Assembly (NCBI GenBank): GCA_029881835.1 | Contig: JAOULV010000001.1 | Span: 1 to 25,003, forward strand | Direction: 5' to 3' | From: Rhodospirillaceae bacterium | GTDB lineage: Bacteria; Pseudomonadota; Alphaproteobacteria; Rhodospirillales; Magnetovibrionaceae | DNA: 25,003 nt | In this document: piece after piece, positions 1 to 20,434 of the stretch | Numbering within the stretch: the stretch's first letter is position 1 | How the letters are laid out: each line of letters starts with the position of its first letter | The notes under the pieces: generated by a model | What the model was told of the DNA's origin: nothing | What the model saw: only the letters and a program-made list of their open reading frames with translations | The model's database searches: none | Made by a program: the position numbers and the translations under genes

Positions 1-6
1 AAAAAT

Positions 7-36
7 AAAACCCCCGCCAAAATGACGGGGGTTTTT
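7..36 (-). terminator. Rho-independent terminator of the petABC operon (possibly bidirectional)
   Basis: The minus strand reads CCCCCGTC-ATTTT-GGCGGGGG followed by TTTTATTTTT. It lies about 20 nt after the petC stop and has A/T tracts on both sides. Confidence 0.9.
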
Positions 37-56
37 ATTACTACAGCCAATCCAAA

Positions 57-911
57 CTAGTTAGGACGCTTGTTCTTGTTAATTTCCGTTTCAAATTTTT
101 CCACATAGGGGCCATGGGTGTATTCATCCAGGCATATGCGGTTCCAGATGCGGCGTTTTAACACATAGAACATGGCGGTAAGGATCATCAGATACAACAT
201 TACCTTTACCCCCAAACGCTTTCTTTCTTCCAGTTCGGGGTTTGATGCCCAAGCCAAGAAACCGGCAATGTCTTTGGCGTGCTGGTCAAGCGTTGCTTCG
301 GTGCCATCTTCATATTCCACCGCTTCATCAAACAATGGCTGGGCCATAAATATTTGGTGTCCGGGGAAATATTTGTTGTAGTAGGTGCCTTCGGACAATT
401 CAAAGCCTTCGGGGGCTTCTTCCATATATCCGGTCATCAAGCCATATATATAATTGGCGCCACCAGCTCGGGCTTTGGTGATAACCGAAAGGTCAGGCGG
501 GAATGCGCCGCCGTTGGCAGAGCGTGCGGCCTTTTCGTTGGCAAACGGTTTTACAATTCGGTCTGACAAGCGTGCCGGACGCAAAAACATTTCACCTTCA
601 TCGTTGGGGCCGTCTTCTACTTCGTATTCGGAAGCTATGGATTTAGCCTCGTCCTCGCTAAAGCCGATATCCAATAAATTGCGGTAATAGACCATTTCAA
701 TGGAATGGCATCCGGCACAAACCCCAAAATAAATGCTGGCACCGCGTTTTAATTGGGCATGGTCGAAGCTGCCAAAAATTCCCTCATAGCCCCATTTGTA
801 GTCGGGCAGCGGTTCTGCCTCGCTCTCTGCGGCCATGGTTTTGCCAGGTGCCATAAAAAAAGCAAAGGATGCCACCAACACAGCGCTAATTATTATATTA
901 CGGTTGCGCAT
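57..911 (-). CDS. petC: cytochrome c1 (bc1 complex)
   Basis: N-terminal signal peptide, CAGCH heme motif, ANGGAFPPDLSVITKAR motif and C-terminal TM anchor. Start moved to ATG 911 (MRNRN), just after the petB stop. Confidence 0.97.
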   Translation of the reverse strand: MRNRNIIISAVLVASFAFFMAPGKTMAAESEAEPLPDYKWGYEGIFGSFDHAQLKRGASIYFGVCAGCHSIEMVYYRNLLDIGFSEDEAKSIASEYEVEDGPNDEGEMFLRPARLSDRIVKPFANEKAARSANGGAFPPDLSVITKARAGGANYIYGLMTGYMEEAPEGFELSEGTYYNKYFPGHQIFMAQPLFDEAVEYEDGTEATLDQHAKDIAGFLAWASNPELEERKRLGVKVMLYLMILTAMFYVLKRRIWNRICLDEYTHGPYVEKFETEINKNKRPN

Positions 912-915
912 TGGC

Positions 916-2142
916 TTAATCCTCCTTGGTGCGGCATTTTTTAGCCACTTCTTCGAATATGCTAACAGGCAATTGTTTTGGTTTTTCAAATCTGCCAACC
1001 AGCGGCAAGACAAGGAAAAATAGGAAATAATAAGCGGTCGAAAGGCGACCCATTATCAGGTAAGCGCCTTCAGCCGGTTTTTGTCCAAGCCAGCCAAGGA
1101 ACAGTGCGTTGGCAACAAAAATCCAGAACAATTGTTTGTAAATCGGGCGATAGGTCGCCGAACGAACTTTTGAGGTATCCAGCCACGGCAGGACATACAA
1201 AACCAATATCCCTGCGGCCATGGCAAGTACGCCGCCCAATTTATCCGGGATCGCCCTTAGAATCGCGTAAAACGGCAAGAAGTACCATTCCGGCACAATG
1301 TGCGGCGGGGTAACCATTGGGTTGGCCGGGATGTAGTTATCCGGGTGGCCAAGGAAGTCCGGGGCAAAGAAAACAAAGAACGAAAAGAACATGAAGAAAA
1401 TGCCAAGTCCGAACAAATCCTTGATGGTGTAAAACGGATGAAACGGCATCATGTCGGCCGGGCTTTTGATTTCAATTCCCAGCGGGTTGTTGGATTTATG
1501 AATGTGTAGCGCCCACATATGAACCACAACCAGACCGAGGATAACCGCCGGTAACAAATAATGCCAAACAAAGAACCGGTTGATGGTCGGCGCATCAACC
1601 GAAAAACCGCCCCAAATCCACACAACGATATATTCGCCGATAACCGGAAGAGCGGAAAACAGGTTGGTAATAACGGTAGCGCCCCAGAAGCTCATTTGTC
1701 CCCAAGGAAGCACATAACCCATAAACGCGGTCGCCATCATTACAACATAAATGGTAACGCCAATCATCCACAGCAGTTCCCGCGGGGCTTTGTATGAACC
1801 AAAATATAGCCCACGGAACATATGAATATAGACCACGATAAAGAACATGGAAGCACCGTTCATATGCAGGTTGCGAAGCAACCAGCCATAATTCACGTCA
1901 CGGACAATGCGCTCAACGCTTTGGAAAGCAACATCGGTATGGGGTTGATAGTTCATGGCAAGGAAAATGCCGGTAACAATCATAATAACCAGAACGATCC
2001 CGGCAATGGAGCCATAGTTCCACCAGTAATTCAGGTTTTTTGGCGTCGGATAAGAAACAAGGTTTTCATCTGAATAGCTGAAAATAGGAAGACGTTCGTC
2101 AATCCACATCAGTAAACGATTGTTGGTTTGCATACGTTTCAT
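916..2142 (-). CDS. petB: cytochrome b (bc1 complex)
   Basis: 408 aa with the PEWY Qo motif, [14 protein letters not shown], and four heme-ligand His in [17 protein letters not shown] and [17 protein letters not shown]. Confidence 0.99.
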
Positions 2143-2150
2143 TGTTTATC

Positions 2151-2729
2151 TCAACCTATCACAATGGATGTTTCATCGGTGAATGTGTATTCCGGGATCG
2201 CCAGATTAAATGGCGCCGGGCCTTTGCGAACCCGTCCGGATGAATCGTAGTGCGATCCGTGGCAGGGGCAGAACCAACCGCCAAAGTCGCCTTTTTTGTC
2301 ACCAAGTTTTTGCCCTGATGGAATGCAACCAAGATGGGTGCAAACGCCAACAGCGACAAGCCATTCAGGTTTTTGTACCCGTTCGCTGTCTGTCTGTTTG
2401 TCGCGTAGCTCATCAAGGCTAACTTCATTAGCCGCAGCAATTTCTTCTTCGGTACGATGACGAATAAACACAGGTTTGCCGCGCCACATAACGGTTACTG
2501 CTTGGCCGACCTCAATCGCTGAAAGATCAACATCGGTTGACGCCAAGGCCAAAACGTCTTTGGCGGGGTTGATTGAATGAATAAAAGGCCACATCGCCAT
2601 ACCCACACCGGCAACACCTAATGCGGTGGTTGACATAAGCAAAAAGTCACGCCTTGGCGCGCTTTCTATTTCATCGGCAATTTGTTCGGCTGTTGCGCCT
2701 GCGGGGGCGGTATTGGAATTGTCAGACAT
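2151..2729 (-). CDS. petA: Rieske iron-sulfur subunit of bc1
   Basis: RRDFL Tat motif plus TM helix, and CTHLGCIP and CPCHGSHYD boxes. Start ATG 2729 is preceded by AGAAAGG. Confidence 0.98.
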
Positions 2730-2795
2730 TTTGCTGCCTTTCTGCATTAATTACTTGGCCGCTGGTTTATGGGCTATAACTTTGATGGTATTGGC

Positions 2796-2824
2796 CACAT
2801 AAAGCCCCCGAAGGGTACCGTCAA
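2796..2824 (-). promoter_or_regulatory. putative sigma70 promoter of petABC
   Basis: The minus strand has TTGACG-N17-TATGTG about 65 nt upstream of the petA ATG. The -10 element is weak. Confidence 0.45.
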
Positions 2825-2852
2825 GGCCTGTTCCAGGCTAGTCAATTTGCCG

Positions 2853-2871
2853 TTGATTTAGCCTAATTCAA
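2853..2871. promoter_or_regulatory. near-perfect inverted repeat, candidate regulator site
   Basis: TTGATTTAG-C-CTAATTCAA has 9-bp arms with one mismatch and lies upstream of the putative pet -35. Confidence 0.35.
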
Positions 2872-3024
2872 CACCATACACAATGGGGCATACTTCGGTG
2901 TTTGTTGGTATAAAACATTATTGTGGCAGGGAAAAGTGAAAATATTATATTTTACTAATATATTTATCACGGCATAACTGATTATAAATAAACAAATAAT
3001 TGATAATTAACTGGCGTCAAATAC

Positions 3025-3477
3025 ATGAAAATAGCCTTATTCCAACCGGATATCCCCCAAAACGCAGGAACCATCATCCGCACTGCGGCCTGCCTTGGTG
3101 TGGGGGTGGATTTGATAGAGCCTCTGGGGTTCGTGCTATCGGATAAACACCTTAAACGTGCGGGCATGGATTACCTGAATATGGCCCATGTCGAACGCCA
3201 CAATTCGTGGCAGACGTTCATGGCCAGCCGGGAAACGGCCCCCGGCAGGTTGGTTTTGCTTACCACCGGGGCAAATACCCCTTACACGGATTTTGAATTT
3301 TCCATTGATGACACAATTTTGCTGGGGTCGGAAAGTTCCGGGGTGCCGGACTTTGTCCATCAAAGCGTGGACGCAAGGCTGATTATACCAATGTCGGGCA
3401 ACGCAAGGTCACTAAACGTTGCTATCGCGGGCGCAATGGTGCTGGGCGAAGCGTTGCGCCAAAGCGCAAATAATTAA
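3025..3477 (+). CDS. trmL: tRNA (cytidine(34)-2'-O)-methyltransferase, SPOUT family
   Basis: 150 aa with LFQPDIPQNAGTIIR, LLGSESSGVP and IPMSGNARSLNVA motifs; divergent from petA. Confidence 0.93.
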   Translation: MKIALFQPDIPQNAGTIIRTAACLGVGVDLIEPLGFVLSDKHLKRAGMDYLNMAHVERHNSWQTFMASRETAPGRLVLLTTGANTPYTDFEFSIDDTILLGSESSGVPDFVHQSVDARLIIPMSGNARSLNVAIAGAMVLGEALRQSANN

Positions 3478-3481
3478 ATTA

Positions 3482-4516
3482 TCAATCGTGGCGAATAAGC
3501 CACCAGTGCATCAAAGTCCAAATTAGCGCCAACGCTGAAATCGCAATTATGCCCGCGGTTACTGCAATGTCGAAAGTATTGGAAAGCGGGATATGATAAT
3601 ATTGTGATGGCGAAGACCCCGACACCCAGACATAACGTTCAATCCATGTTCCTAAAATAACGCAAAAACCAACCATCATTATAACGCTTGGGCTGTGGCG
3701 CATTCTTTTAAACAAGAACAAGCTAAAGGGTATGAAAAATTTCAAAACAAGGAAGGTCATGCCCAGCAACATATAGCCCTCGTCAATCATGCGCCAGTAA
3801 CGCTCCATATCGGTTGGCAGGCGCCCGTACCACATGATTAGGTACTGGGTGAAATAAAAATAAACCCACATGATGCTCATGGCTAAAATGAACTGCGCCA
3901 AGTAATTGTAAATTTTAGGATCAAATACACGGGTCAAGCGGCCGGAACGGTCCAAAATAAACAACATTAAGACAAAAAATCCCAAAAAACCATGAAAGGC
4001 ACTTTGCAGTTGGTACGCACCATATGATGCGCTGTGCCAACCCGGCTCTAGCGTCATTTCAAAATCCCACGCAATCATGGTGCCATAAATTATGTAAGCA
4101 AACGGCATTATCACCGCTAGCTTGCCAAACATTTTAGGGCGATGTTTTTCTCTATCTGCTTCGGAAACGTACTGGCACCTTATGGCCGCGACCGAAAGAC
4201 CGGCAACAATCAAAAAACCGATAATCTGACGGGCCACAAGAAATGAATAATTGTGCCATCCCGGTAAGTGCGCTTCTTCGGCGTGCGCATTTTTAAGCCA
4301 AGGGAAAGTCATTTCCCCGTTTAGCAATAAAATTAAAAGCAAAATAAACGCTATGGGAAACAGCGATGTAACGGCACCGGAAAGAAAACGTATTTGCACG
4401 CGCCATTTGCCCCCGGCAAGATGCAAAATAACCGGAAACAAGGCTCCGGAAAGCGCCAAGTAAAGAACGATAAGAAAATTAGTTGTCAGTACGGACCAGC
4501 TGCCAAAATCTTCCAT
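3482..4516 (-). CDS. actF: alternative complex III subunit ActF (NrfD-like polytopic membrane protein)
   Basis: 344 aa with many TM helices and the segments WDFEMTLEPGWHSASYG and YLIMWYGRLP. Last gene of the act cluster; start ATG 4516. Confidence 0.85.
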   Translation of the reverse strand: MEDFGSWSVLTTNFLIVLYLALSGALFPVILHLAGGKWRVQIRFLSGAVTSLFPIAFILLLILLLNGEMTFPWLKNAHAEEAHLPGWHNYSFLVARQIIGFLIVAGLSVAAIRCQYVSEADREKHRPKMFGKLAVIMPFAYIIYGTMIAWDFEMTLEPGWHSASYGAYQLQSAFHGFLGFFVLMLFILDRSGRLTRVFDPKIYNYLAQFILAMSIMWVYFYFTQYLIMWYGRLPTDMERYWRMIDEGYMLLGMTFLVLKFFIPFSLFLFKRMRHSPSVIMMVGFCVILGTWIERYVWVSGSSPSQYYHIPLSNTFDIAVTAGIIAISALALIWTLMHWWLIRHD

Positions 4517-4520
4517 TTTC

Positions 4521-5102
4521 TCATTCCCCCTTTGGCGCAGGCATGGCTTGGGCCATGGCGGCATCTTTTGCCAGTTGGTGTTTTACATAATTTACCACAT
4601 GCCAGCGCTCTTCCACCGACAGGTCGTTTGATCCGCGCAGTTCCCCGTTCATGTCACCGGCCTGACCATAGGGCGGCATAATCGCGCTACCAAAAGTTAT
4701 GGTTCCAAAAATCCATCCATCGGTAAAATCTTCCATGAAATCTGGATCGGTTAAATCCGGCGCGCCAATTTTTTCCGCAACCGGGCTTTCGCCGCGCCCC
4801 GTAAGCCCGTGGCAACCACCGCAATAAATTCTAAAAAGCACACGCCCTTGGGTAAAGGATTGTTGCGTTGGCGCTATGGGGTTGGCAATTCCATCGGTCG
4901 CTTCGCGGTCCGTATATTCGGTTGGAATACCGGTTACGGGAACCGAGCGCGATGGGTAAGGCGTGGTTTTTTCCTGCGGCTTTATTGATACCTGATTGAC
5001 CATATCTTTTGACCACGGCCACGCGTGGGCGTTATGCGGCAATAGCAAAACTGCGCCAAAGCCGACAAACGAATAAATCAAATATTTAAAAGGAGATTTC
5101 AT
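4521..5102 (-). CDS. actE: alternative complex III monoheme cytochrome c ActE
   Basis: Signal peptide ending AHA, single CGGCH, distal Met in IMPPY, and position between actD and actF. ATGA overlap with actD. Confidence 0.88.
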   Translation of the reverse strand: MKSPFKYLIYSFVGFGAVLLLPHNAHAWPWSKDMVNQVSIKPQEKTTPYPSRSVPVTGIPTEYTDREATDGIANPIAPTQQSFTQGRVLFRIYCGGCHGLTGRGESPVAEKIGAPDLTDPDFMEDFTDGWIFGTITFGSAIMPPYGQAGDMNGELRGSNDLSVEERWHVVNYVKHQLAKDAAMAQAMPAPKGE

Positions 5103-5644
5103 TGTGCGTTCTCCTCAAAAATATCAATTACCCGGTGCTTAGCAAAAAGATCGCGAACCTGTTGGCGTTGGGTGTCATCAACCCGTTCAACCACAATGCC
5201 AATTTGATCAAGACTAACCGCATGGTCATAAAATGGACCGCGTTTGCGCATCAATCTGGCACCGATAATAAAACCGATAAGGGTCGCCAAAACACCAAAC
5301 AAAATTAGCATTTCATATGCCAACACCAGGTTTGATGGAATGGTTATCACCGGCTTGCCGCCTTGGGGTTGCACGGTAAAGTTGGCTTGCGCACCGGCAA
5401 GAAAGAAGAACCCGAATATAAGACCGAACAATCCGCCGACGAAGGCAAATTTTGGAATGTTGGTTGGGCGTTCGCCCAGCACGTCTTCAATTTCGGGATG
5501 TTCAATTGGTGATTTTATACGAACATCATCAACCGTAATTCCCGGAACTTCGTAACGGCGGATACCGGCTATTACTTCAAATGCTTGTTCAAAATCTGCG
5601 AACAGTCCGAATATGCGGTGGGTTGGTGCTGTATGATTTGCCAT
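5099..5644 (-). CDS. actD: alternative complex III subunit ActD (DUF3341-like)
   Basis: 181 aa with two TM helices and the segments SPIEHPEIEDVLG and LAYEMLILFGVLAT. Start ATG 5644, directly after the actC stop. Confidence 0.88.
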   Translation of the reverse strand: MANHTAPTHRIFGLFADFEQAFEVIAGIRRYEVPGITVDDVRIKSPIEHPEIEDVLGERPTNIPKFAFVGGLFGLIFGFFFLAGAQANFTVQPQGGKPVITIPSNLVLAYEMLILFGVLATLIGFIIGARLMRKRGPFYDHAVSLDQIGIVVERVDDTQRQQVRDLFAKHRVIDIFEENAQ

Positions 5645-5645
5645 T

Positions 5646-7094
5646 TCAAGACCCCCCATTTTTTGTCGAGCCGGCTTCAACGGCCGTGGGTGCACCTTTG
5701 TGCAGAACCATCATTTCATCAACGTCTTCATAAATTGTGCGTTTGCGATGAAAGACCATTTCCTTGACTTCATACATGGAAACACAAGGAAATACTTTTA
5801 CGAAAATAAGGAACAGCATTCCAAACCAGCCAAAGCTACCGCCGACCATTGCCCATTCAACCCAGCCGGGCCACATTATGTTCCAGCCCCACGGATGGTA
5901 TGACATGGACAGGGTAGGGGTTACGATCATCCAGCGTTCCAGCCACATACCAACGTTTAGTAATACCGATACAACAAACAATAACTTCATGTTGCGCCTG
6001 ACCCATTTAGACAAAAGCGCAAATGGTAAAAACATGCCAAACGCAATCATGCCCCAGAAGAACGGTGCATAGGGGCCATAGGCTTTTGCTAACAGAACTT
6101 CTTTGGATGGGATGTCATGGCCGTACCAAACGGAAGCAAACTCAACCAAGTTTAGATAAGACCAAACCATGGCGATAACAAATGTCAGCTTGCAGACCTT
6201 ATCCAAAATGGGGAACGTCATGTATTCTTCAAATTTGAAAAAATACCTGAGCAAAATAAACAGCGTAATAATGGCGGCACAGCCGGAATAAAGCGCACCG
6301 GCAACAAAATATGGCGGGAAGGTCGTAACGTGCCAGCCTGGCATAATAGCCATGGCAAAATCCATCGAAACAATTGAATGAACCGAAACCGCCAGCGGAA
6401 TAAGGAAACACGCAATCATAAGGTAGGTAATGCGGAAATTGCGCCATTGCCTGTCATCACCGTGCCAGCCGAGCGATAGCCAGGTATAAAGTTTTTTGCG
6501 CCAGCCGGTTGTGTTGTCGCGGCAAATCGCCAAATCGGGTATCATGCCGATATACAGAAACAAAACCGATGACGTTAGGTAAGTGGTGATGGCAAACGCA
6601 TCCCAAATTAGGGGTGAGCGGAAATTGGGCCAAATACCGCGATCGGTCATATAAGGCATAACCCAATAAAAGTTCCATACCCTTCCTAAATGAATGACCG
6701 GGAATATGCCCGCGGTCATAAGTGAAAACGTGGTCATGGCTTCGGCAAAGCGGTATATGGGCTTGCGCCAATCGGCATGAACCAAGTGCAAAATAGCCGA
6801 AAGAAGGGTGCCGGAATGGCTCATCCCGATCCAGAAAACGAAGGTGGAAATATATAAATCCCACATATGCGAGGTGTTAAGCAGGGCCGGGCCCATGCCG
6901 TAAATATATTGATAAACCTCGGCATAAATCATCACGCTAAACAGGGCCACAGAAATTGCCATCGCAATCCAATAGCCGCGGCGCGGATTTTCCATTGAAC
7001 GCAAAACGTCCCGGTTGATTTTGGCCCAAGCGATATTTTCATCAATATCTTTTGTTTGGGTTTCGCTTAAATGTTTAAGTGCGGCTTCGCTCAT
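5646..7094 (-). CDS. actC: alternative complex III quinol-binding subunit ActC (NrfD/PsrC family)
   Basis: 482 aa with FVFWIGMSHSGTLLSAIL, IHLGR, NFRSPLIWD, SVHSIVSMDFA and PPYFVAGALYSG motifs. Confidence 0.95.
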   Translation of the reverse strand: MSEAALKHLSETQTKDIDENIAWAKINRDVLRSMENPRRGYWIAMAISVALFSVMIYAEVYQYIYGMGPALLNTSHMWDLYISTFVFWIGMSHSGTLLSAILHLVHADWRKPIYRFAEAMTTFSLMTAGIFPVIHLGRVWNFYWVMPYMTDRGIWPNFRSPLIWDAFAITTYLTSSVLFLYIGMIPDLAICRDNTTGWRKKLYTWLSLGWHGDDRQWRNFRITYLMIACFLIPLAVSVHSIVSMDFAMAIMPGWHVTTFPPYFVAGALYSGCAAIITLFILLRYFFKFEEYMTFPILDKVCKLTFVIAMVWSYLNLVEFASVWYGHDIPSKEVLLAKAYGPYAPFFWGMIAFGMFLPFALLSKWVRRNMKLLFVVSVLLNVGMWLERWMIVTPTLSMSYHPWGWNIMWPGWVEWAMVGGSFGWFGMLFLIFVKVFPCVSMYEVKEMVFHRKRTIYEDVDEMMVLHKGAPTAVEAGSTKNGGS

Positions 7095-7097
7095 GGT

Positions 7098-7967
7098 TTA
7101 TTCCTCCCGCACACGTTCAAGGTAAAGGACCGAAGGGTCGGTATTTAGTTCTTCAAATATGCGATATCCCCGCAAAGTCGGGTTTTCCCTGTCTTGTTTA
7201 TACTTGCCCAGCTTTATTTGCTGGCGCACCCATGCTTGGGTAACCTTGCTTTCGGGGTTTAGCAGATCGCCAAACATAATTGCCTGGGTCGGGCAGGTTT
7301 GCTGGCAAGCGGTTTTTACTTCACCTTCGGTGACCTGACGATTTTCCATTTTTGCCTTGTCTTTGGCGGCATTAATGCGCTGGATGCAGAATGTGCATTT
7401 TTCCATGACGCCTTTTTCACGCACGCTAATATCCGGGTTTAGCTGTTGCTTCATCGGTTCGGGCCATGCGCCGTTTTCATCGGTATAAGAATAAAAATTA
7501 AACACCCGCAAACGATAGGGGCAGTTGTTGGCGCAATAACGCGAACCGATACAACGGTTATAAATCTGCGCGTTAAGGCCATCGGGCGTATGATAAGTTG
7601 CCGCCACCGGGCAAACCGGCTCGCAAGTTGCCGCATTACATTGTTGGCACATCATCGGCAAAAATGATGCACCGCGTTCTTGCATGGCGTTTTCATCATC
7701 TATTGCGCCGGGGTCAATATCGGGTTCATCAAAATATCTTTCAACCCGCAGCCATTGCATTGATTGGCGGGCAACGTATTTTTCTTCACCCACGGTAGCT
7801 ATGTTGTTTTCTGCATAGCACGCCACCGAACAGGCATTGCATCCGGTGCATTTATCAAGATCGATAACCATGCCCCACATATGTTCATATTCGTGATGGC
7901 CACCTTCTTCGATGCCTTTGGTGTAATCGGTCCAGCCTTTTAATATATTTCCGAATAGAGATGACAT
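7098..7967 (-). CDS. actB2: alternative complex III Fe-S subunit ActB2
   Basis: WGMVIDLDKCTGCNACSVAC, CQQCNAATCEPVCP, CIGSRYCANNCP (3Fe-4S type) and KCTFCIQR...CQQTCP. Own GAAGGAGG RBS and no signal peptide. Confidence 0.92.
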   Translation of the reverse strand: MSSLFGNILKGWTDYTKGIEEGGHHEYEHMWGMVIDLDKCTGCNACSVACYAENNIATVGEEKYVARQSMQWLRVERYFDEPDIDPGAIDDENAMQERGASFLPMMCQQCNAATCEPVCPVAATYHTPDGLNAQIYNRCIGSRYCANNCPYRLRVFNFYSYTDENGAWPEPMKQQLNPDISVREKGVMEKCTFCIQRINAAKDKAKMENRQVTEGEVKTACQQTCPTQAIMFGDLLNPESKVTQAWVRQQIKLGKYKQDRENPTLRGYRIFEELNTDPSVLYLERVREE

Positions 7968-7970
7968 GTA

Positions 7971-10151
7971 TTAGGCCCCTCCTTCAGTTCTGCGCTGTTT
8001 ATCGGCGCTTATGGTTGCAACAAGTTTGCGCCCGTGTTGACGATCAATTTCCATCAGCTTGGCCATTTGTTTGTTTTTGCCCGCACTTTTCACACTAACC
8101 TTGGTGGCAGTGGTGGCAATTTCACCGGTCTTGCTATCGCTTGCGCCATTAAGAATAGAAAGCGGGTTTACCCCGTTATCTTTGGCGTAACGCCCAAGCG
8201 CACTATGGCCGCGCCCAATAGGAACGGCGATGGCACCGGGATGAATGCCTTTATAAATAAAGGCGCGGGTGGTTACTTCACCGCTGGCAGATTTTATATT
8301 TATGTAATCACCATCTTTAATACCAAGTGACTTGGCAGTTTTGGGGTGAAGTTCTGCCCATGAATCCCACACTACTTTGGAAATTTGGTCAGGTGATTCT
8401 TGTAACCACGGAAGGTTGGCGCCCCGCCCATCCCACATACCCATTCTGGCGCTGGCAATTAAGGTTAGGTTGCCATCATCAGAATCATTCATCGTTGGTG
8501 TTATTTTGCCGTCACTATAAGAAAGTTTCCGCCCAAGTGATGGTATTTGGGTTTGCCCCGCCATCAAGAACCCGTTCCATTCTTTTTCGCTGTCGGTTTT
8601 TTTCAGCGCGCTTATGGCGCTGCGCAGGTAGCCGTAATAATCATCATAATCATCCAGTCCCGGCGCGCCCGCGTCTTTGGCCAGCGCCAAAACAACATCA
8701 CCGAAGCCGCGGGTATTGGGGAAAACCGGCTCCATTAACGGCTGTTGCAGGGCAAGATTTCTTGTTCCCTTGGCGTATGAAGGAATGTGGCTTCCCCAAT
8801 CTTCCAACGACGATGCCAACGGCAATACCACGTCTGCCGCTTCGGCCGTTTCGTCAAGCATGGAAGAAAGAACAACTTTAAATCCGACCTTGTTCCAGCC
8901 TTCAAGCATTTTTAGCGATTTGGGCGCAAGGAAAAGCGGGTTTGCGCCGGATACAAACAAAACATCAATTTTGCCCTCGTTGGCATCAATTGCCAAATCT
9001 TTTAGGTTGGCGCTGTTACCTTCAACCAAGTCTAGTTGCGGATAGGCAAGTTCACGCCCGGCGGTAATGGTAGTTCCGATGTTGCCTAGCATCTGGTTTA
9101 ACATCAATGCCGCTGCCGCTGCCGAATAACCGTTTGCATTGCCTGTGGCACTTCCGCCAGCCAAAACAAGGCTAGGGCTGTTTGCCGCCAGTGATGCGGC
9201 AATTTTTTCAATTCTGCCAACCGGCACAGCGCAAATGCCCGCCACTGTTTCGGGGTCGTGTTTATTGATAAGCGTTTTTGTTGCGTTTGAAATACCATTG
9301 CCCGCAACGCCGTGGTTATTCATAAGTGCATTTGCCACGCCTAGGGCCAGCGCGGTTTCACTTCCGGGTTTTATTCCAACCCAGTGATCTGCGTTGCCAC
9401 CGGTTAACGACATGGCGGGCTCGGCCTGAATAAGCGTGCCGCGCGGTGGGGTGCGAAATTCAGCGTAGCTTGCGGCAAAATGAACGGGCGAAATAAACGT
9501 GCCCAGGAAATCAGCGCCTAACGAGAAAATAACCTTGGCTTTTTCAAGGTGTATCTCGGGGTTGGGGTCATTGATAATATCTTTGCACGCCGTTTTCCAG
9601 ACATTGGCATTAATTTGTTCAACGGCGTAATGCCTAGACCCGCCAATTGCCCCAAGATGGGTTTGGGCCATTACTCTTTGATGGCCGCTAATGGTGCCGG
9701 TTACCCATGCGGCTTTGCCTGATTTGCTTTTTTCATTTATTAGCGCAATCGCTTCATCCCAGCTTGCTTCAACCAATGCACCGTTTTTGCGCACCATTGG
9801 GTTGGCTATGCGATCAGGGTTAAAATGGTGCTGCAGGGCGGCTTGGCCCATTTGGCAAAGGCGTCCCATGTTGACGCCGGAATCAGGGTTGCCTTCCAGT
9901 TTTAAAACCCGCCCTTCGCGCACCCGGCCATGTATCCCGCAACCAGCAGAACACCCCACGCAGGTTGACGCATACCATACACCAACACCGGGAATAACGT
10001 ATTCATTCGGCGCCAGATAGGAAATTACATTTTCTTCACCTTGTTCAAGCGTAACGTATGATGGCAGGTCGCACCCGGCCAAGGCCACACCCGCACCACC
10101 AAGGCCAAGACCTTTGAGGAATTGTCTGCGATCAAGTTTGCTCTGGTTCAT
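7971..10151 (-). CDS. actB1: alternative complex III ActB1, molybdopterin-oxidoreductase-like subunit, Tat lipoprotein
   Basis: 726 aa with DRRQFLK Tat motif, LAGC lipobox (C27), CX2CX3CX27C motif (C64/67/71/99), and a C-terminal dinucleotide-binding-like domain (AELHPKTAKSLGIKDGD). Confidence 0.9.
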   Translation of the reverse strand: MNQSKLDRRQFLKGLGLGGAGVALAGCDLPSYVTLEQGEENVISYLAPNEYVIPGVGVWYASTCVGCSAGCGIHGRVREGRVLKLEGNPDSGVNMGRLCQMGQAALQHHFNPDRIANPMVRKNGALVEASWDEAIALINEKSKSGKAAWVTGTISGHQRVMAQTHLGAIGGSRHYAVEQINANVWKTACKDIINDPNPEIHLEKAKVIFSLGADFLGTFISPVHFAASYAEFRTPPRGTLIQAEPAMSLTGGNADHWVGIKPGSETALALGVANALMNNHGVAGNGISNATKTLINKHDPETVAGICAVPVGRIEKIAASLAANSPSLVLAGGSATGNANGYSAAAAALMLNQMLGNIGTTITAGRELAYPQLDLVEGNSANLKDLAIDANEGKIDVLFVSGANPLFLAPKSLKMLEGWNKVGFKVVLSSMLDETAEAADVVLPLASSLEDWGSHIPSYAKGTRNLALQQPLMEPVFPNTRGFGDVVLALAKDAGAPGLDDYDDYYGYLRSAISALKKTDSEKEWNGFLMAGQTQIPSLGRKLSYSDGKITPTMNDSDDGNLTLIASARMGMWDGRGANLPWLQESPDQISKVVWDSWAELHPKTAKSLGIKDGDYINIKSASGEVTTRAFIYKGIHPGAIAVPIGRGHSALGRYAKDNGVNPLSILNGASDSKTGEIATTATKVSVKSAGKNKQMAKLMEIDRQHGRKLVATISADKQRRTEGGA

Positions 10152-10172
10152 GGTTTTTTCTTTCTCCAGATT

Positions 10173-10817
10173 CTACTTGTGACACTTGGTGCAGTCTGAC
10201 GGGCCTTCGTTGGCCTCGTGACAGCGAATACAAAAGCCCATGGTTAGCGGGCGCGACTTTTTAGCCACGGTCATTTCGGCAATATCGCCATGACACATGG
10301 AACAAACACGCTTGGCGTCCGAAACGTCTAGTTCTTGGTTATCAAACAAAAAACGCTTCAGGTGACGTTGGTGGGTAAAGTGAACAAAATCCGGCAGGTC
10401 ATGAACCTTGTTCCATTGTGGGCTTTCGCCTTTTTCCCACATGGCGGTTAGCTTTTGAATTTCCGGTTTTTCGGTTGCGATTACCGTGTGGCAGCCCATG
10501 CATTTGGAAAGGGGCGGTATGCCAGAAACCTTGGAACGCCTTGCGTAGGTATGACAGAACATGCAGTTAATCTCGTTATCGCCGGCATGGATTTTATGGG
10601 AAAAATCTATTGGCTGGGGGACATCGATGCCGGTGAAGGCTTCATCCGGGTACTGGGTTCCCGGAACTATAGGTCCCGGTACTACATCGGTGCTGGTGTA
10701 GTGAAGCTTTTGATCAAGTATCTGCGCCGCAATAACGATTATTGCGCCCACCAGCACAACAACCATGCTTAGACGGATCCATGGAATTGGCCTTTTCCTT
10801 GGGTTGTTCTTGACCAT
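10173..10817 (-). CDS. actA: alternative complex III pentaheme cytochrome c ActA
   Basis: N-terminal TM anchor, QPIDFSHKIH, five CXXCH motifs (CMFCH, CMGCH, CSMCH, CIRCH, CTKCH) and LPDFVHFTH. Confidence 0.93.
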   Translation of the reverse strand: MVKNNPRKRPIPWIRLSMVVVLVGAIIVIAAQILDQKLHYTSTDVVPGPIVPGTQYPDEAFTGIDVPQPIDFSHKIHAGDNEINCMFCHTYARRSKVSGIPPLSKCMGCHTVIATEKPEIQKLTAMWEKGESPQWNKVHDLPDFVHFTHQRHLKRFLFDNQELDVSDAKRVCSMCHGDIAEMTVAKKSRPLTMGFCIRCHEANEGPSDCTKCHK

Positions 10818-10860
10818 ACGGTCGATGCTCCCCTGTCAAACAACCCCGGTACCGCGAAAG

Positions 10861-10909
10861 TAATATTAGTTAATTAGTATATAATATTTAAGTAATATTC
10901 ATGTAATAT
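10861..10909. repeat. helically phased TAATAT direct repeats upstream of actA
   Basis: TAATAT at 10861, 10882, 10893 and 10904, plus TAATTA at 10871; spacings are 10, 11, 11 and 11 bp. Confidence 0.6.
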
Positions 10910-11068
10910 GCGTTATGTTGGGGCATTCTTATTATTATTTGAAGTAACCATAACTATACAAAGAAAAATTGTATTTGCTACTACTTATGTGGTGGGGGTG
11001 TATCTACCCATATGGGGGGCAGTTGTTTTTGGCAAATAATGTCGTAACCATGAATAAATTATTTTACT

Positions 11069-12382
11069 TCAGATAGTTGATGGATGATCACTGCTGGGGG
11101 CAATCTCACCGCGCAGGCGCTCTAGGCAGGCATTAAGATCTGGGCGAAAGTCTTGATCCATCCACCACCGTTCCACTTTTTTTAAAGCGTCCCCCAGTTC
11201 GGGGCCGGGGTTTAACCCCAAATCAAGGCCATGGCGCCCTTTTAGGGGGAAGCGAACCACCTGCCAGGCAGCAATTGCGGATAAAACATTTTTCCATTTT
11301 TCCGTTACGCCCGGTTTTTGGTGTGGGGTGATGGAAATCTCGCCCGCCCATTCAATCAAGGCTTTATCCATAACTATATCTTTGCCCAGCATATAACATG
11401 CGCTGCGGATGTCTTGCTCGCCAGACAAACCGTTTATGGGCGGCGCATCACCAGCATTTTCTGCGCAAGCAATTGCCAAAAGATGATCGCTTTCACGTTT
11501 TGAAAATTTAAGTCGCGAACAAATATTTTTTATTTCTTCTTTGTTTGTTCTGGGTTTTATCAATGCCGCCAGTCTGCGAACGGGGTCGGTTTCAATTTCA
11601 CCCATTATTATGCCGCGCTCGACCAACCATGCCAATGCCCGCAACCTGCCAACGTCGCCCGCTTCGGGAAGTATGTGTTCAAGTATTTTTTCCGAACGCA
11701 TCAAGGCAATAATGTCTGCGGTATTGGGGGCCATTAAAATACGGAAAAGTTCGCCCCTTATGCGTTCACCCGAAAGCTCTACCAATCTATGGCTCAGCTT
11801 GCGACAAGCTATCATTGCCTCGTTGTCTATGGGCGGCCTGCCGTACTGGGCATAAAAACGAAAAAATCTAAGCATCCTTAGCACATCTTCGTTGATGCGG
11901 CTTTCGGCTTCGCCGACAAAGCGTATTCTGCCTTTGGCTAAATCGTTTAACCCATCGTAAGGGTCAAAAATATCACCTTCATCGTTAGCCGACATTGTGT
12001 TGATGGTAAAATCACGCCGTGCCGCATCTTGGGTCCAGTCATCGGTAAATTTAACGGTCGCCCTTCTGCCGTCGGTTTTGACGTCAATGCGAAGGGTGGT
12101 TATTTCAAAATGATGTTTTTTTATAACCGCAGTTATGGTTCCATGGGCAATCCCTGTGGGTATGGCTTTTATTCCCGCTTGTTCAAGAACCTTTATCACC
12201 GCTTGGGGGTCGCTGGGGGTGGCTAAATCTATGTCTTTTACCGGGCGCTTTAGTATTGAATCGCGCACGCACCCACCAATAAAGCGTACCTCAATACCGC
12301 CTGCTTTAAGTGCGGCCATAAGCTCGCGGGTTTGTGGCGTTTTCATCCACGGTTGGGGTGGTATTTTTCCGGTGGGGTCCAC
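11069..12382 (-). CDS. cca: CCA tRNA nucleotidyltransferase (class II)
   Basis: FIGGCVRD, DIDLAT, RRDFTINTM and EDVLRMLRFFRF motifs. GTG start at 12382; ATG 12347 is an alternative. Confidence 0.93.
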   Translation of the reverse strand: MDPTGKIPPQPWMKTPQTRELMAALKAGGIEVRFIGGCVRDSILKRPVKDIDLATPSDPQAVIKVLEQAGIKAIPTGIAHGTITAVIKKHHFEITTLRIDVKTDGRRATVKFTDDWTQDAARRDFTINTMSANDEGDIFDPYDGLNDLAKGRIRFVGEAESRINEDVLRMLRFFRFYAQYGRPPIDNEAMIACRKLSHRLVELSGERIRGELFRILMAPNTADIIALMRSEKILEHILPEAGDVGRLRALAWLVERGIIMGEIETDPVRRLAALIKPRTNKEEIKNICSRLKFSKRESDHLLAIACAENAGDAPPINGLSGEQDIRSACYMLGKDIVMDKALIEWAGEISITPHQKPGVTEKWKNVLSAIAAWQVVRFPLKGRHGLDLGLNPGPELGDALKKVERWWMDQDFRPDLNACLERLRGEIAPSSDHPSTI

Positions 12383-12430
12383 TGGGTTAAATCCGCTAAA
12401 TATTAAGTGTGCAAATATTGAAAATTAGCT

Positions 12431-12724
12431 TTATTTCGGTGTCATTTCGCCCGGCACAATTTTACCGTCTTCAAATCGTGGTGGTTGGTAGCTAGAACCA
12501 GCAGGCGAACCGCCAACGGTTGCAATTACGCCAAGGCCTATGGCCATTAACAAAACGCCAGCCAGGACCAACCTTATCCACGGGGTTTTTATTTCCAGGT
12601 GCTCAACGTCTTCGCCGGCGCGTTTGGCCGCGTCTATTTTGCGCCTGACCCAACCCATCCATATAAAATATAAAATGCTAGGTAGAACCAGCGGTAAAAC
12701 ATATGTAAAAATAATACGTATCAT
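12431..12724 (-). CDS. small membrane protein, DUF6111-like
   Basis: 97 aa with two hydrophobic segments and a C-terminal YQPPRFEDGKIVPG; lies between the Nudix gene and cca. Confidence 0.7.
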   Translation of the reverse strand: MIRIIFTYVLPLVLPSILYFIWMGWVRRKIDAAKRAGEDVEHLEIKTPWIRLVLAGVLLMAIGLGVIATVGGSPAGSSYQPPRFEDGKIVPGEMTPK

Positions 12725-12770
12725 TAATTGCCCTTTATTGATCGTTTCCGCTCACGTATAAGCTTTAGCA

Positions 12771-13433
12771 TTATATGCCTTTTTTCTCAATCGCCAGAAC
12801 CTCGTATAGATTAAACAGCATTCCAGCGGTGGCGCCCCATATATAATAATCCCCATAAGGCATGGCGTAAAATTTTCTGATATTGCCTTCAAAATTTCTT
12901 TCCAAAAGCTGGTGGTTGGTTGGGTCCATAAAATGCGCTAAGGGCACTTCAAAAATCTCGGCCACTTCTTTGGGATCGGGGTGCAAATCAAACGAGCCAA
13001 AAATATGTCCAATAACCGGAACGATCGAAAATCCGGTGCGGGTTATGTAGGTATCTAGTCTGCCAATAACATTTATGTTTTCCCGCCCAATTCCGGTTTC
13101 TTCAAAGGTTTCGCGAATGGCTGCGGCGGTGGCGTCAATATCGCCATCGTCAATATGGCCGCCGGGAAAACTTATTTGTCCGGGATGGTGTTCAAGGTCA
13201 TCCGTGCGCTGGGTTAATAAAACGTGCAATCCATTTGCCCGTTCTAACAGCCCAACCATAACCGCAGCCGGGCGCAACGCAACGCCTGAGCGCATATCGG
13301 TTATAAGCTCGCTTTTTATTTCCGGATTTAAATCAAAATCGCCGCGGCCAATGGCGAAATTATTTTCGGGCGTAATTGATGGGGCGGTAGTTTCCGCATC
13401 TCTTAAGCGCTGTAAAACCCATTTAAGGTCCAT
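12771..13433 (-). CDS. CoA pyrophosphatase-type Nudix hydrolase (NudL/PCD1-like)
   Basis: LLTQRTDDLEHHPGQISFPGG, Nudix box IRETFEETG and IWGATAGML. Confidence 0.9.
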   Translation of the reverse strand: MDLKWVLQRLRDAETTAPSITPENNFAIGRGDFDLNPEIKSELITDMRSGVALRPAAVMVGLLERANGLHVLLTQRTDDLEHHPGQISFPGGHIDDGDIDATAAAIRETFEETGIGRENINVIGRLDTYITRTGFSIVPVIGHIFGSFDLHPDPKEVAEIFEVPLAHFMDPTNHQLLERNFEGNIRKFYAMPYGDYYIWGATAGMLFNLYEVLAIEKKGI

Positions 13434-13436
13434 CAG

Positions 13437-14018
13437 TTATTCGTGGGGGACCGTATCACCAACCGGAAAAAACGCCCCCGCGCTCCAAAATCCTTTGACT
13501 GGATTATTATCCAATACTGTTGTGACACATAATTTTAACAATTGTGAAAATATGTCATCTCGTATCAGAACATCCATATTGTTTTCCATCTTAACATATG
13601 GAGCAAGATTTTGAATTGCCGGGTTTGGCTTTAAATAAAAAGGGTTTTTTGTTGAAATCTCGACCTGCTGTTCGGTTTTGGTTATTAGTTTTATGGTCTG
13701 CTTTTCGCCTTCTCCCGCCATTACTATTTCAATCGCAACGAACGGTGCGTCGGCAACAGATATGCGCCCTATCTCGGTGGGGGAAACCAACCAATAATGG
13801 CCATCACTACCAAGCATAAGCATGTTTGAAAATAGACATGCCAATTCTTGTTGTTTAATCGGTTTGGAATTATAATACCAAGTTCCATCACGCCCAATTT
13901 TAATGTCCAAGTTACCGCAGTATTCGCGATCACCCAGTGGAATTGGCAGGTTTAAATCAACCTCTCCCGGATCAACAAAAATAGGAAAATCATTGTTATC
14001 TGATGTCTGTGAGACCAT
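13437..14018 (-). CDS. DUF1285-family protein
   Basis: LDIKIGRDGTWYY and YWLVSPTEIGRISVADAPFVA segments. Start ATG 14018 preferred; 14054 is possible. Confidence 0.75.
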   Translation of the reverse strand: MVSQTSDNNDFPIFVDPGEVDLNLPIPLGDREYCGNLDIKIGRDGTWYYNSKPIKQQELACLFSNMLMLGSDGHYWLVSPTEIGRISVADAPFVAIEIVMAGEGEKQTIKLITKTEQQVEISTKNPFYLKPNPAIQNLAPYVKMENNMDVLIRDDIFSQLLKLCVTTVLDNNPVKGFWSAGAFFPVGDTVPHE

Positions 14019-14184
14019 ATTTAACCTAACTAGTTTGCGCGCAGGCTCAACCAAGGCATTCGCGCATTGGCTACTTTTGTAATATGGGATCTATTTGGGC
14101 GTCTAAAAGCATTTTTTTAAATATTATTGACACTTTAAGATATATAAGCCTGATCATATATACGGGAAAAGCACGGAAAATAAG

Positions 14185-14886
14185 ATGATAAAAGTTATAC
14201 CACTTGAAAAACTTGGTCACGCGAACCATGGCTGGCTTAATGCCAGGCACCATTTCAGCTTTGCCGATTATTATGACCCGGCGCGCATGGGCTTCGGCCA
14301 TTTACGTGTATGGAACGATGATGCAATCAAAGGCAACAGCGGCTTTCCCATGCACCCCCACCGCGACATGGAAATAATTACTTATGTTCGTACTGGTGCC
14401 ATAACCCATGAAGACAGTCTGGGCAACCGTGGAAAAACCAGCGCCGGTGAAGTGCAGGTGATGAGCGCCGGAACCGGCATTCGCCATTCGGAATATAACG
14501 AAGACGAAGAAACCTTGACCCTGTTTCAGATATGGGTGGAACCAGACAGGGCAGGGCACGCCCCCAGATGGGATGCGGCCAAGGTTTCAACCGCAACCGA
14601 TGATGCTTTTCGCCTGCTTGTATCGGGGCGCAAAAAAGACGAAGGCAAAGGCGCATTATTCATTCATCAAGACGCCGCTTTTTATCGCGCCAATTTAGAT
14701 GTCGGCGCAAATGTTGAATATTCAACCGAACCGGGCAGGATGATGTATCTTGTTCCGGCAAGGGGAGAAATAGCGATTAATGGCTTAATCGTACCGGAAC
14801 GTGCCGGGGTGCAGATTGAAGACGAAGACCGCATAATAATAGATGCCCCCGAAGGCGCAGAAGTGGTATTGCTTGATCTTCCTTAA
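14185..14886 (+). CDS. pirin family protein (YhhW-like)
   Basis: WLNARHHFSFADYYDP, GFPMHPHRDMEIITYV, HEDSLGN, QVMSAGTGIRHSE and FQIWV motifs. Confidence 0.95.
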   Translation: MIKVIPLEKLGHANHGWLNARHHFSFADYYDPARMGFGHLRVWNDDAIKGNSGFPMHPHRDMEIITYVRTGAITHEDSLGNRGKTSAGEVQVMSAGTGIRHSEYNEDEETLTLFQIWVEPDRAGHAPRWDAAKVSTATDDAFRLLVSGRKKDEGKGALFIHQDAAFYRANLDVGANVEYSTEPGRMMYLVPARGEIAINGLIVPERAGVQIEDEDRIIIDAPEGAEVVLLDLP

Positions 14887-14930
14887 AAAAAGTAACAAAA
14901 AAATTGTCAAAGGGGATGCGGGGCACAGCA

Positions 14931-15350: not shown

Positions 15351-15353
15351 AAA

Positions 15354-16049: not shown

Positions 16050-16115
16050 GCACTTTCATTGGTCGGGCTATGGGTCTAAACTAACCGCAATTAGATATTA
16101 ATGGGGGAAATCAAT

Positions 16116-16487: not shown

Positions 16488-16497
16488 AAGAAATTGA

Positions 16498-17094: not shown

Positions 17095-17130
17095 AATTAT
17101 AATTTCCCCATTAACATTAATTTATTCGCT

Positions 17131-20021: not shown

Positions 20022-20042
20022 TTTGATTTTTTCCTATTAAAC

Positions 20043-20420: not shown

Positions 20421-20434
20421 TTTAAAAGATTCCC

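Follow-up and report, generated by a model that had tools for sequence, protein, structure and literature searches.

What does a second, unrelated quinol:cytochrome c oxidoreductase do in a cell that already has a bc1 complex, and how did the genes of the two come to be neighbors? In the 25,003-nucleotide stretch of DNA that we analyzed (the window), petABC, for bc1, and actAB1B2CDEF, for a predicted alternative complex III (ACIII), lie side by side on the minus strand. The host, an uncultured alphaproteobacterium from marine sediment, belongs to a Magnetovibrio/Thalassospiraceae-like family and is represented by a fragmented metagenome-assembled genome (MAG) of 410 contigs (91.5% complete, 4.2% contamination). 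The question of what ACIII adds to a bc1-bearing cell dates from the discovery of both complexes together in iron oxidizers. If their roles differ, this clade would offer a clean natural setting for an answer; close relatives differ only in the presence or absence of act at one fixed site, and one relative (G020) has a closed genome of 3.07 Mb and may thus be a cultured strain.

The coexistence of bc1 and ACIII is already known from the literature, and the present case is a modest addition rather than a surprise. The main advance is that the host range of split-ActB, FS0-bearing ACIII is widened to Magnetovibrio/Thalassospiraceae-like Alphaproteobacteria; a conserved insertion site adjoining petABC is also documented. 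We consider it probable that these are two complete, separately transcribed operons, that act was inserted beside the ancestral bc1 genes after a single acquisition and was then inherited vertically, and that the two complexes act in parallel.

Both operons are complete

An earlier note on this DNA had described both complexes as intact, and this was borne out: none of the pet or act genes contains a frameshift or internal stop, and every defining part of ACIII is present (Table 1). For bc1, we found a Rieske protein with both cluster-binding motifs (CTHLGC and CPCHGS), a cytochrome b with PEWY, and a one-heme cytochrome c1, all in a single operon. The petC open reading frame (ORF), as listed, begins with a TTG at 1013, but an ATG at 911, 4 nucleotides past the petB stop, is its likely start; a signal-like N terminus follows M35. 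The petA start previously placed at 2729 is the second ATG, the ORF beginning at 2747. The hairpin downstream of petC is the probable end of the operon.

TABLE 1 Features of the pet-act region and its borders, numbered from the first letter of the window
Feature	Position	Strand	Supporting observations
Terminator-like hairpin	7-35	-	Just downstream of petC; 13-pair stem with 7 GC pairs, then a T run
petC, cytochrome c1	57-1013	-	PF02167 (Cytochrom_C1), 3.3e-94; one CXXCH (CAGCH)
petB, cytochrome b	916-2142	-	PF00033, 1.2e-73; PF00032, 4.9e-44; PEWY motif in translation
petA, Rieske iron-sulfur subunit	2151-2747	-	TIGR01416 (Rieske_proteo), 224 bits vs cutoff of 97.4
petA/trmL divergent intergenic region, presumed pet promoter region	2748-3024	.	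277 bp, AT-rich
trmL, SpoU-family tRNA 2'-O-methyltransferase	3025-3477	+	PF00588, 2.8e-30
actF, second NrfD-like membrane subunit	3482-4564	-	Best PDB matches are ActF chains; alternative start at 4516
actE, monoheme cytochrome c	4521-5102	-	PF13442, 3.9e-9; one CXXCH; signal peptide
actD, small membrane subunit specific to ACIII	5099-5695	-	PF11821 (ActD), 98 bits vs cutoff of 25.7
actC, quinol-binding NrfD-like subunit	5646-7094	-	NrfD Pfam match; solved ActC chains
actB2, iron-sulfur subunit	7098-7967	-	4Fe-4S dicluster domains; four cysteine groups
actB1, molybdopterin-oxidoreductase-like subunit	7971-10151	-	PF00384, PF01568, PF04879, TAT_signal
actA, membrane-anchored pentaheme cytochrome c	10173-10817	-	Five CXXCH; N-terminal transmembrane helix; cytochrome c7/c3 Pfam match
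cca/actA intergenic region, act upstream junction, presumed act promoter region	10818-11068	.	251 bp, very AT-rich
cca, CCA-adding enzyme/poly(A) polymerase family	11069-12382	-	PF01743 and PF12627; backbone gene

The act products were compared with the chains of solved enzymes. ActC matched those of all four solved ACIII (6lod_C, 8k9e_C, 6f0k_C, and 6btm_C; E values from 1.4e-99 to 2e-92). ActF matched 6f0k_F best (1e-18), followed by 8k9e_F, 6btm_F, and 6lod_F (range to 4e-13), with weaker matches to ActC chains, and ActD matched 6lod_D, 8k9e_D, and 6f0k_D. ActB1 aligned over its full length with the B1 domains of ActB in 6lod, 6btm, 8k9e, and 6f0k; it carries a Tat signal (RRQFLK), a lipobox (LAGC), and the CX2CX3CX27C FS0 motif, and it has an Asn at the position aligned with the Mo-ligand Cys of ArrA. 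With ActA, ActB (as B1 and B2), ActC, ActD, ActE, and ActF all recognizable by sequence, the act genes encode a predicted ACIII of the split-ActB type with an FS0 motif.

The residues of the quinol site, the proton channel, and the coupling between subunits have been assigned in Rhodothermus marinus ACIII by Sousa et al. 2018 (PMC5928083). In the window's ActC, Asp165, Ser237, and His239 align with R. marinus Asp169, Ser245, and His247, and His93, Arg110, Arg115, and Glu118 align with His97, Arg114, Arg119, and Glu122. Tyr172, Ser176, Asp187, Arg192, and Asp193 of ActC likewise align with R. marinus quinol-site or proton-channel residues, Glu128 of ActD aligns with the coupling Glu122 of R. 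marinus ActD, and Tyr235 of ActF aligns with the conserved Tyr284 of R. marinus ActF.

A grouping of the act genes with Qrc would have undermined this assignment, as the earlier note pointed out. QrcABCD of sulfate reducers has a homologous module, in which an iron-sulfur and an NrfD-type subunit are joined by a molybdopterin-like subunit that has no cofactor. QrcB and QrcC were the top-scoring named NCBIfam models for ActB1 and ActB2, yet far under their cutoffs (260 bits versus 440 and 227 bits versus 400, respectively), and the presence of ActD, ActE, and ActF further excludes a Qrc identity. Qrc is not known to have these three subunits, and it works as a quinone (menaquinone) reductase. 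The act genes thus match solved ACIII and not Qrc.

act and pet are predicted to be separate transcription units

The two operons had been described as co-oriented, with only trmL between them. Both are indeed on the minus strand with that single gene in between, but trmL itself lies on the plus strand, and its stop codon is 4 bp from that of actF. TrmL scored 129 bits against TIGR00185, under the cutoff of 190.6. Its gene lies next to petA in relatives with or without ACIII; it is a backbone gene that belongs to neither complex. Because a plus-strand gene and the 277-bp divergent trmL/petA region intervene, act and pet are predicted to be transcribed separately, a reading also backed by the strong terminator after petC.

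A promoter scan gave promoter-like matches no more often than expected by chance. We found no FNR/Anr-type box upstream of act or pet (TTGAT-N4-ATCAA with up to 2 mismatches; 22 matches in the window versus 17 expected), nor any regulator gene or recognizable regulatory box near act.

The act cluster occupies a conserved insertion site

The 7.3-kb act cluster is bordered precisely by the 3' end of cca on one side and that of trmL on the other, and it interrupts a conserved backbone consisting of nudix-DUF6111-cca on one side and trmL-petABC on the other. A survey of pet-trmL-act synteny, as advocated in the earlier note, showed that this order recurs in relatives from three families. cca-act-trmL-petABC was present on single contigs of five relatives in family f1 (G007, G002, G013, G018, and G020, the last with additional sequence separating actF from trmL) and of four in f22 (G155, G102, G127, and G115). 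G201, from f8, has the same layout minus trmL, a direct actF-petA tandem. The site is empty in eight genomes without ActD, in which cca lies approximately 15 to 200 bp from trmL, leaving too little room for a gene (G014, G016, G017, G019, G001, G041, G065, and G085), and one genome (G137) carries unrelated cargo there.

The pet-adjacent act genes form one clade (support, 100/100), and its topology agrees with that of a backbone tree made from the flanking genes themselves (PetABC, TrmL, and Cca). On that tree, the presence or absence of act requires a minimum of 6 changes. Its distribution is patchy within genera, with act in 2 of 6 genomes of g6 and mixed states in g28. The G+C content of the act stretch is approximately 0.48, compared with 0.481 for the genome. 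Because the act tree matches the flanking-gene tree and cca abuts trmL at the empty sites, a single old acquisition followed by about six losses is suggested. The cluster would probably have been acquired once, by the ancestor of three families in the order, the source being the split-ActB ACIII of Gamma- and Betaproteobacteria; vertical inheritance and several clean losses, about six, would have followed. Transfer of the cluster together with its flanks by homologous recombination would yield congruent trees too. Six clean losses are many, and it may be that the cluster was gained repeatedly at one hotspot instead. The adjacency of act and pet looks like the product of the place of insertion and not of functional coupling.

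Outside the Alphaproteobacteria, the act genes are closest to those of Gallionellaceae and of uncultured Gammaproteobacteria, among them "Ca. Tenderia," with 67 to 76% identity in ActC. Other families of the same order have a fused-ActB ACIII, which likewise coexists with bc1. Its ActC is merely 38 to 41% identical to that of the window, and its ActD scores 139 to 193 bits with the Pfam model versus 77 to 102 bits for the window's type; unlike the latter, it is not near pet, the two being 290 kb apart in G250. The higher ActC identity to Gammaproteobacteria and Gallionellaceae than to the order's other ACIII supports a foreign origin of the window's act genes. According to the literature, a COX operon of subtype a-I is the typical companion of Act clusters in Alphaproteobacteria (PMC6431628, PMC4986455). 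In 69 gamma- and betaproteobacterial loci with flanks of up to 10 kb, we found no pet, trmL, or cca beside act, even at an E value of 1e-3. As for the donor and the direction of transfer, two trees disagree: FastTree put the alphaproteobacterial act clade as sister to the gammaproteobacterial ones, whereas a more careful tree nested it among them, with weak support (85/59) and a very long outgroup branch.

ActD was detected in 31 of the 301 genomes surveyed in the order and petB in 284 of the 301. Almost every genome with ACIII also has bc1, and the generalization that ACIII usually substitutes for bc1, from which the earlier note had started, does not hold within this order.

The cluster resembles those of neutrophilic iron oxidizers

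As had been noted, actB1 and actB2 are split in the way already known from Gallionellaceae and Zetaproteobacteria (PMC4643136); Kato et al. 2015 reported actAB1B2CDEF in the neutrophilic iron oxidizers Ferriphaselus, Sideroxydans, Gallionella, and Mariprofundus (PMC4643136). The clusters of the iron oxidizers and of uncultured Gammaproteobacteria such as "Ca. Tenderia" share with the present one the seven genes in the same order, the split ActB, the CX2CX3CX27C motif in ActB1, the lack of actG and of an adjacent oxidase, and a bc1 in the same genome. The window's cluster differs from them in its alphaproteobacterial host, its position directly beside petABC, and the lack of a Cyc2-like gene in a heuristic scan.

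The solved complexes of Rhodothermus marinus (6F0K), Flavobacterium johnsoniae (6BTM), and Roseiflexus castenholzii (6LOD/6LOE), together with 8K9E/8K9F, have the same ActA-F set, and the window's proteins retain the residues of the quinol site, of the proton channel, and of the coupling among ActC, ActD, and ActF, but the ActB of the solved complexes is fused and not split. They come from menaquinone-using organisms, mostly without bc1. ACIII of that type is often encoded beside, or works with, a caa3 oxidase (PMC5928083).

Acidithiobacillus ferrooxidans, with petI and petII, also has two complex III-type enzymes in one chemolithoautotroph, and a passage of PMC5566968 cites proposals of uphill and downhill electron flow for its two bc1 complexes. 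Those enzymes are paralogous and their differential expression has been shown, whereas the two complexes of the window are unrelated and are known here from their genes.

Gene content fits a branched chain

The genome contains genes for NuoG, bc1, ACIII, cbb3 oxidase (ccoNO), and a cd1 NirS-like protein, a content that upholds the branched respiratory chain proposed earlier. A search for RuBisCO and oxidases, which had also been proposed, returned ccoNO and part of a form I RuBisCO, next to which lies a GvpN/CbbQ-like AAA+ gene. A three-gene molybdoenzyme cluster was read as SoeABC-like. RuBisCO, cbb3, and this putative SoeABC-like cluster are compatible with a lithoautotrophic, microaerobic organism. 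The presence of ACIII itself had been taken to suggest a lithotrophic or microaerobic lifestyle. That lifestyle is compatible with RuBisCO and cbb3, but ACIII adds nothing to its inference, because each of the family's 13 high-quality genomes has RuBisCO, 6 of them lacking ACIII. The content of heme-copper oxidases and NirS did not track ACIII within the family either.

A look for cyc2 and sox genes had been suggested as well. In this 91.5%-complete genome of 410 contigs, a heuristic scan, which sought one CXXCH near the N terminus of an ORF followed by a long C-terminal part, returned only NirS-like, MurG-like, and flavoprotein ORFs and no Cyc2-like one. SoxZ, cytochrome bd, and MqnA were not found in it, which at that completeness is not proof of absence, and a MenA-like match was barely at the cutoff (104.5 bits versus 102.15). 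For the different quinone pool that one complex had been suggested to serve, the MenA and MqnA results are the only hints.

A parallel route is the favored role of ACIII

Gene content, residue conservation, synteny, and phylogeny are the observations from which we infer the direction of electron flow, the choice of acceptors, and the regulation. petABC would be the ancestral alphaproteobacterial bc1. ACIII would oxidize quinol at ActC and pass the electrons through the iron-sulfur clusters of ActB2 and the hemes of ActA and ActE to periplasmic c-type carriers. From these carriers, electrons would reach the cbb3 oxidase and the cd1 nitrite reductase, with bc1 as a parallel route. Proton translocation as in the solved enzymes is suggested by the conservation of the coupling residues of ActC, ActD, and ActF.

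Alternatively, in line with the reverse operation of one complex suggested in the earlier note, the two might divide the labor, one working downhill from quinol to cytochrome c and on to cbb3 or NirS, and the other working uphill, where electrons of periplasmic cytochrome c would enter the quinone pool and pass via complex I to NADH for CO2 fixation. An uphill role of ACIII has been proposed for neutrophilic iron oxidizers (PMC4643136, PMC5566968), the ACIII found here is of the type of iron oxidizers and "Ca. Tenderia" (split ActB, FS0 in ActB1), and the genome has RuBisCO, NuoG, and cbb3. Nevertheless, since RuBisCO is also found in the 6 family genomes without ACIII, autotrophy in this family needs no ACIII. 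Furthermore, the heuristic ORF scan returned no fused porin-cytochrome resembling Cyc2, SoxZ was not found, and at its quinol site and proton channel, the complex keeps the residues of quinol-oxidizing enzymes. The proposers themselves termed the placement of ACIII in such chains highly speculative (PMC4643136). We regard this division of labor as unlikely.

A stronger version holds that the bc1-ACIII pair is a selected functional unit of a marine chemolithoautotrophic Rhodospirillales clade, with one complex running uphill and the other downhill, whichever way round. If this were true, the actF-petA tandem of G201 would be a genomic trace of their coupling; we find this version quite doubtful.

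ACIII might also be a second quinol oxidase that the cell can do without and that is expressed when bc1 works poorly, e.g., under natural Qo- or Qi-site inhibitors, sulfide, NO, or certain conditions of oxygen or iron. A conditional back-up of this kind would account for the free gain or loss of act by lineages, and the cluster is indeed patchy within genera on the same genomic background. The two operons have separate presumed promoter regions, and Sousa et al. have suggested that the expression of coexisting complexes is set by metabolic needs (PMC5928083). However, neither a regulator gene nor a recognizable box accompanies act, and this explanation largely overlaps with the parallel route that we favor, from which it differs in emphasis alone. 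As a separate account, it appears improbable.

The junctions are present in independent data

Finally, the earlier note had cautioned that the join between trmL and actF might be chimeric. Fusion of an alphaproteobacterial pet region with a gammaproteobacterial act region during assembly or binning could be envisaged from the state of the MAG (410 contigs, 4.2% contamination) and from the closest act relatives outside the order, which are Gammaproteobacteria, but this reading is already refuted by the same join in at least 10 independent assemblies from three families, by backbone genes on either side of act, by a uniform G+C content throughout the region, and by independent contigs. The layout is real and inherited. 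Logan contigs from four runs of four studies covered positions 1 to 12500, including both junctions, at even depth and with zero joints. Single Logan pieces spanned trmL/actF (3415-4264), actA/cca (10555-11249), and petA/trmL (2545-3083).

bc1 and ACIII operons side by side

At 25,003 bp, the window is the full longest contig (C381) of a fragmented MAG (1.87 Mb, 410 contigs, completeness 91.5%, contamination 4.2%, G+C 48%). Inspection of its genes confirmed that petABC and actAB1B2CDEF lie side by side, as the earlier note had claimed. All expected bc1 motifs are present: the Rieske protein has CTHLGC and CPCHGS, cytochrome b has PEWY, and cytochrome c1 has a single CXXCH.

Coordinates of the pet, act and flanking genes in the window
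Gene	Position	Strand	Remark
petC	57-1013	-	ATG at 911 is the likely start
petB	916-2142	-	
petA	2151-2747	-	
trmL	3025-3477	+	sole plus-strand gene among those listed
actF	3482-4564	-	
actE	4521-5102	-	
actD	5099-5695	-	
actC	5646-7094	-	
actB2	7098-7967	-	
actB1	7971-10151	-	
actA	10173-10817	-	
cca	11069-12382	-	

The Act proteins look like a complete set. ActA is membrane-anchored with five CXXCH motifs, ActE carries a single one, and ActB2 has four cysteine groups. ActD reached 98 bits against its Pfam family (cut-off 25.7) and matched the ActD chains of solved ACIII; ActC matched its counterpart chain in each of the four solved enzymes (1e-99 to 2e-92), and the best matches of ActF were likewise ActF chains. 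We aligned the proteins against the quinol-site, proton half-channel and inter-subunit coupling residues of Sousa et al. 2018 (PMC5928083). ActC has kept His93, Arg110, Arg115, Glu118, Asp165, Tyr172, Ser176, Asp187, Arg192, Asp193, Ser237 and His239, and Glu128 of ActD and Tyr235 of ActF are also conserved. ActB1 carries a twin-arginine signal, a lipobox, molybdopterin-oxidoreductase domains and the FS0 motif CX2CX3CX27C, with an Asn aligned at the position of the molybdenum-ligand cysteine of ArrA. Because NCBIfam models of Qrc, the menaquinone reductase of sulfate reducers, scored well under their cut-offs, and because Qrc is without ActD, ActE and ActF, all present here, a Qrc identity of the act genes was rejected. 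The cluster is instead exactly of the type that Kato et al. 2015 (PMC4643136) describe in iron oxidisers, with split B1/B2 and the FS0 motif, in line with the initial assignment.

A chimeric join between trmL and actF, raised as a possible artifact, was excluded. Independent MAGs from other samples show the gene order cca-actAB1B2CDEF-trmL-petABC too. Logan contigs of four runs, taken from as many sediment-metagenome studies, span positions 1-12500 without joints and with even depth, and single contig pieces bridge each of trmL/actF, actA/cca and petA/trmL.

The earlier note had also asked whether the juxtaposition was already described. Coexistence of ACIII and bc1 is: Sousa et al. 2018 (PMC5928083) stated it, Kato et al. 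2015 (PMC4643136) gave a table of it for iron oxidisers, and He et al. 2017 (PMC5566968) discussed either ACIII or bc1 as the inner-membrane partner of Cyc2 in these bacteria. No description of the cca / act / trmL-pet arrangement in Magnetovibrio/Thalassospiraceae-like bacteria came up in our literature search, and none of the 69 Gamma/Beta act loci compared has pet, trmL or cca in its flanks of up to 10 kb. With coexistence known, the addition here is a tidy evolutionary story for pet-adjacent split-ActB ACIII.

Predicted transcription units and function

From their layout, act and pet are predicted to be separate transcription units. The intervening trmL runs on the opposite strand and ends 4 bp from the actF stop; for pet there is a separate divergent intergenic region of 277 bp and a strong terminator after petC, and the act upstream region is 251 bp long and AT-rich. 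Neither upstream region contained an FNR-type box. By homology, the best-supported mechanism is that ACIII would serve as a second quinol:cytochrome c oxidoreductase that feeds the same periplasmic carriers as bc1, in parallel with it, and would probably pump protons, an activity proposed for the solved enzyme.

The act operon occupies the same site in genomes of three families

In the window's own family (f1, 21 species genomes), ActD was found in 14 genomes and petB in 19. In the pet neighbourhoods compared within f1, act lies exactly between cca and trmL in ACIII genomes; in five genomes without ACIII, cca is ~15-50 bp from trmL, and the backbone is the same on both sides (nudix, DUF6111, cca / trmL, petABC). 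Among 301 genomes sampled across the order, 31 have ActD and 284 petB, and nearly all ACIII carriers also have bc1. The same insertion was found in a second family, f22 (G155, G102, G127 and G115; empty sites in G041, G065 and G085), and in a single genome (G201) of the third family, f8. A different ACIII, with fused ActB, occurs in other families of the order; its ActC is 38-41% identical to the window's type, and it is far from pet.

In G201, a 55%-complete MAG (L117, C299, 8973-11704), trmL is missing, and petA follows ~200 bp after actF with the same orientation. This places the pet and act operons directly in tandem, and they could be co-transcribed. Adjacency is not universal among carriers: actF and trmL are 4.5 kb apart in G020, and no pet genes were found within 8-12 kb downstream of act in G009 and NORP274.

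The gap in G020, a closed 3.07-Mb relative (L090, C1:1004000-1023999, 10480-17668), holds ORFs without Pfam match, and petB is preceded by two petA-like (Rieske) genes in tandem (16182-16682 and 17168-17668). Three f22 loci (L113, L115, L116) have an extra ORF of ~213-225 aa between cca and actA, absent from f1, with a GDSL/SGNH-hydrolase-like N-terminus. In another f22 genome, G137 (L121, C4:56000-75999, 6512-12252), the cca/trmL site carries not act but unrelated cargo, encoding an ABC permease, a DUF4856 protein and a fatty-acid-hydroxylase/solute-binding fusion. This site is apparently a hotspot of variable content.

Origin of the pet-adjacent ACIII

Trees were built from concatenated ActB1+ActB2+ActC (FastTree, 79 rows) and from ActB2+ActC (careful IQ-TREE, 44 rows). 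The pet-adjacent alphaproteobacterial ACIII formed one clade (support 97 and 100/100, respectively) inside the split-ActB radiation formed by Gallionellaceae and uncultured Gammaproteobacteria, Ca. Tenderia among them; the two trees differ, with weak support, on its sister group. This clade divides into f22+f8 and f1; G020 is basal in f1, followed by genera g1+g3 versus g5+g6. The branching order agrees with that of a careful backbone tree (PetA+PetB+PetC+TrmL+Cca, 21 genomes), on which ACIII presence and absence takes at least six changes. In G+C, the act stretch does not differ from the genome. The simplest reading would be that act was acquired once, long ago, at the cca/trmL site, then descended vertically and was cleanly lost several times. 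As backbone markers, the tree uses the very genes that flank act, and transfer of act together with its flanks would give the same congruence.

Respiratory and carbon-fixation genes

The proposal of a branched chain in a lithoautotrophic, microaerobic organism was supported. The window's genome encodes NuoG, cbb3 ccoNO, a fragment of a second heme-copper oxidase cluster adjoining heme o synthase, a cd1 nitrite reductase cluster, and a form I RuBisCO fragment with a GvpN/CbbQ-like neighbour. Three further genes (L108, G000:C99, 4004-8648) encode a PhsA-like molybdoenzyme of 980 aa, a DsrO/DmsB-like iron-sulfur subunit and a membrane ORF of 314 aa without family match; this cluster was read as SoeABC-like because its layout resembles that of the SoeABC sulfite dehydrogenase, with no equivalog cut-off reached. 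RuBisCO was present in 13 of 13 high-quality f1 genomes, with or without ACIII, and oxidase and NirS content did not track ACIII. In the 91.5%-complete MAG, neither a Cyc2-like ORF (by heuristic ORF scan) nor SoxZ was found. On quinones, it gave a MenA-like hit barely at the cut-off and no MqnA. Reverse electron flow through one complex, also suggested initially, is speculation carried over from the iron-oxidiser literature, which itself grades the placement of ACIII in the chain "highly speculative" (PMC4643136).

A ~520-aa protein (G000:C47:483-1118; relatives, e.g., G007:C50:4334-4939) gave a weak cytochrome b N-terminal-like match, with 20-30% identity to PetB. It is family-wide and adjoins NorB-like and cd1 NirS genes; its gene has one in-frame TAA stop in the window's genome.

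Elsewhere in the window, three ORFs (231, 128 and 198 aa; 15354-17094) have no Pfam match, the first two being conserved in synteny family-wide between osmC and the gcv operon. Upstream of gcvT-gcvH-gcvPA-gcvPB (17131-21559) lies a glycine riboswitch aptamer (RF00504, 65 bits, 21724-21827, minus strand), an ordinary arrangement.
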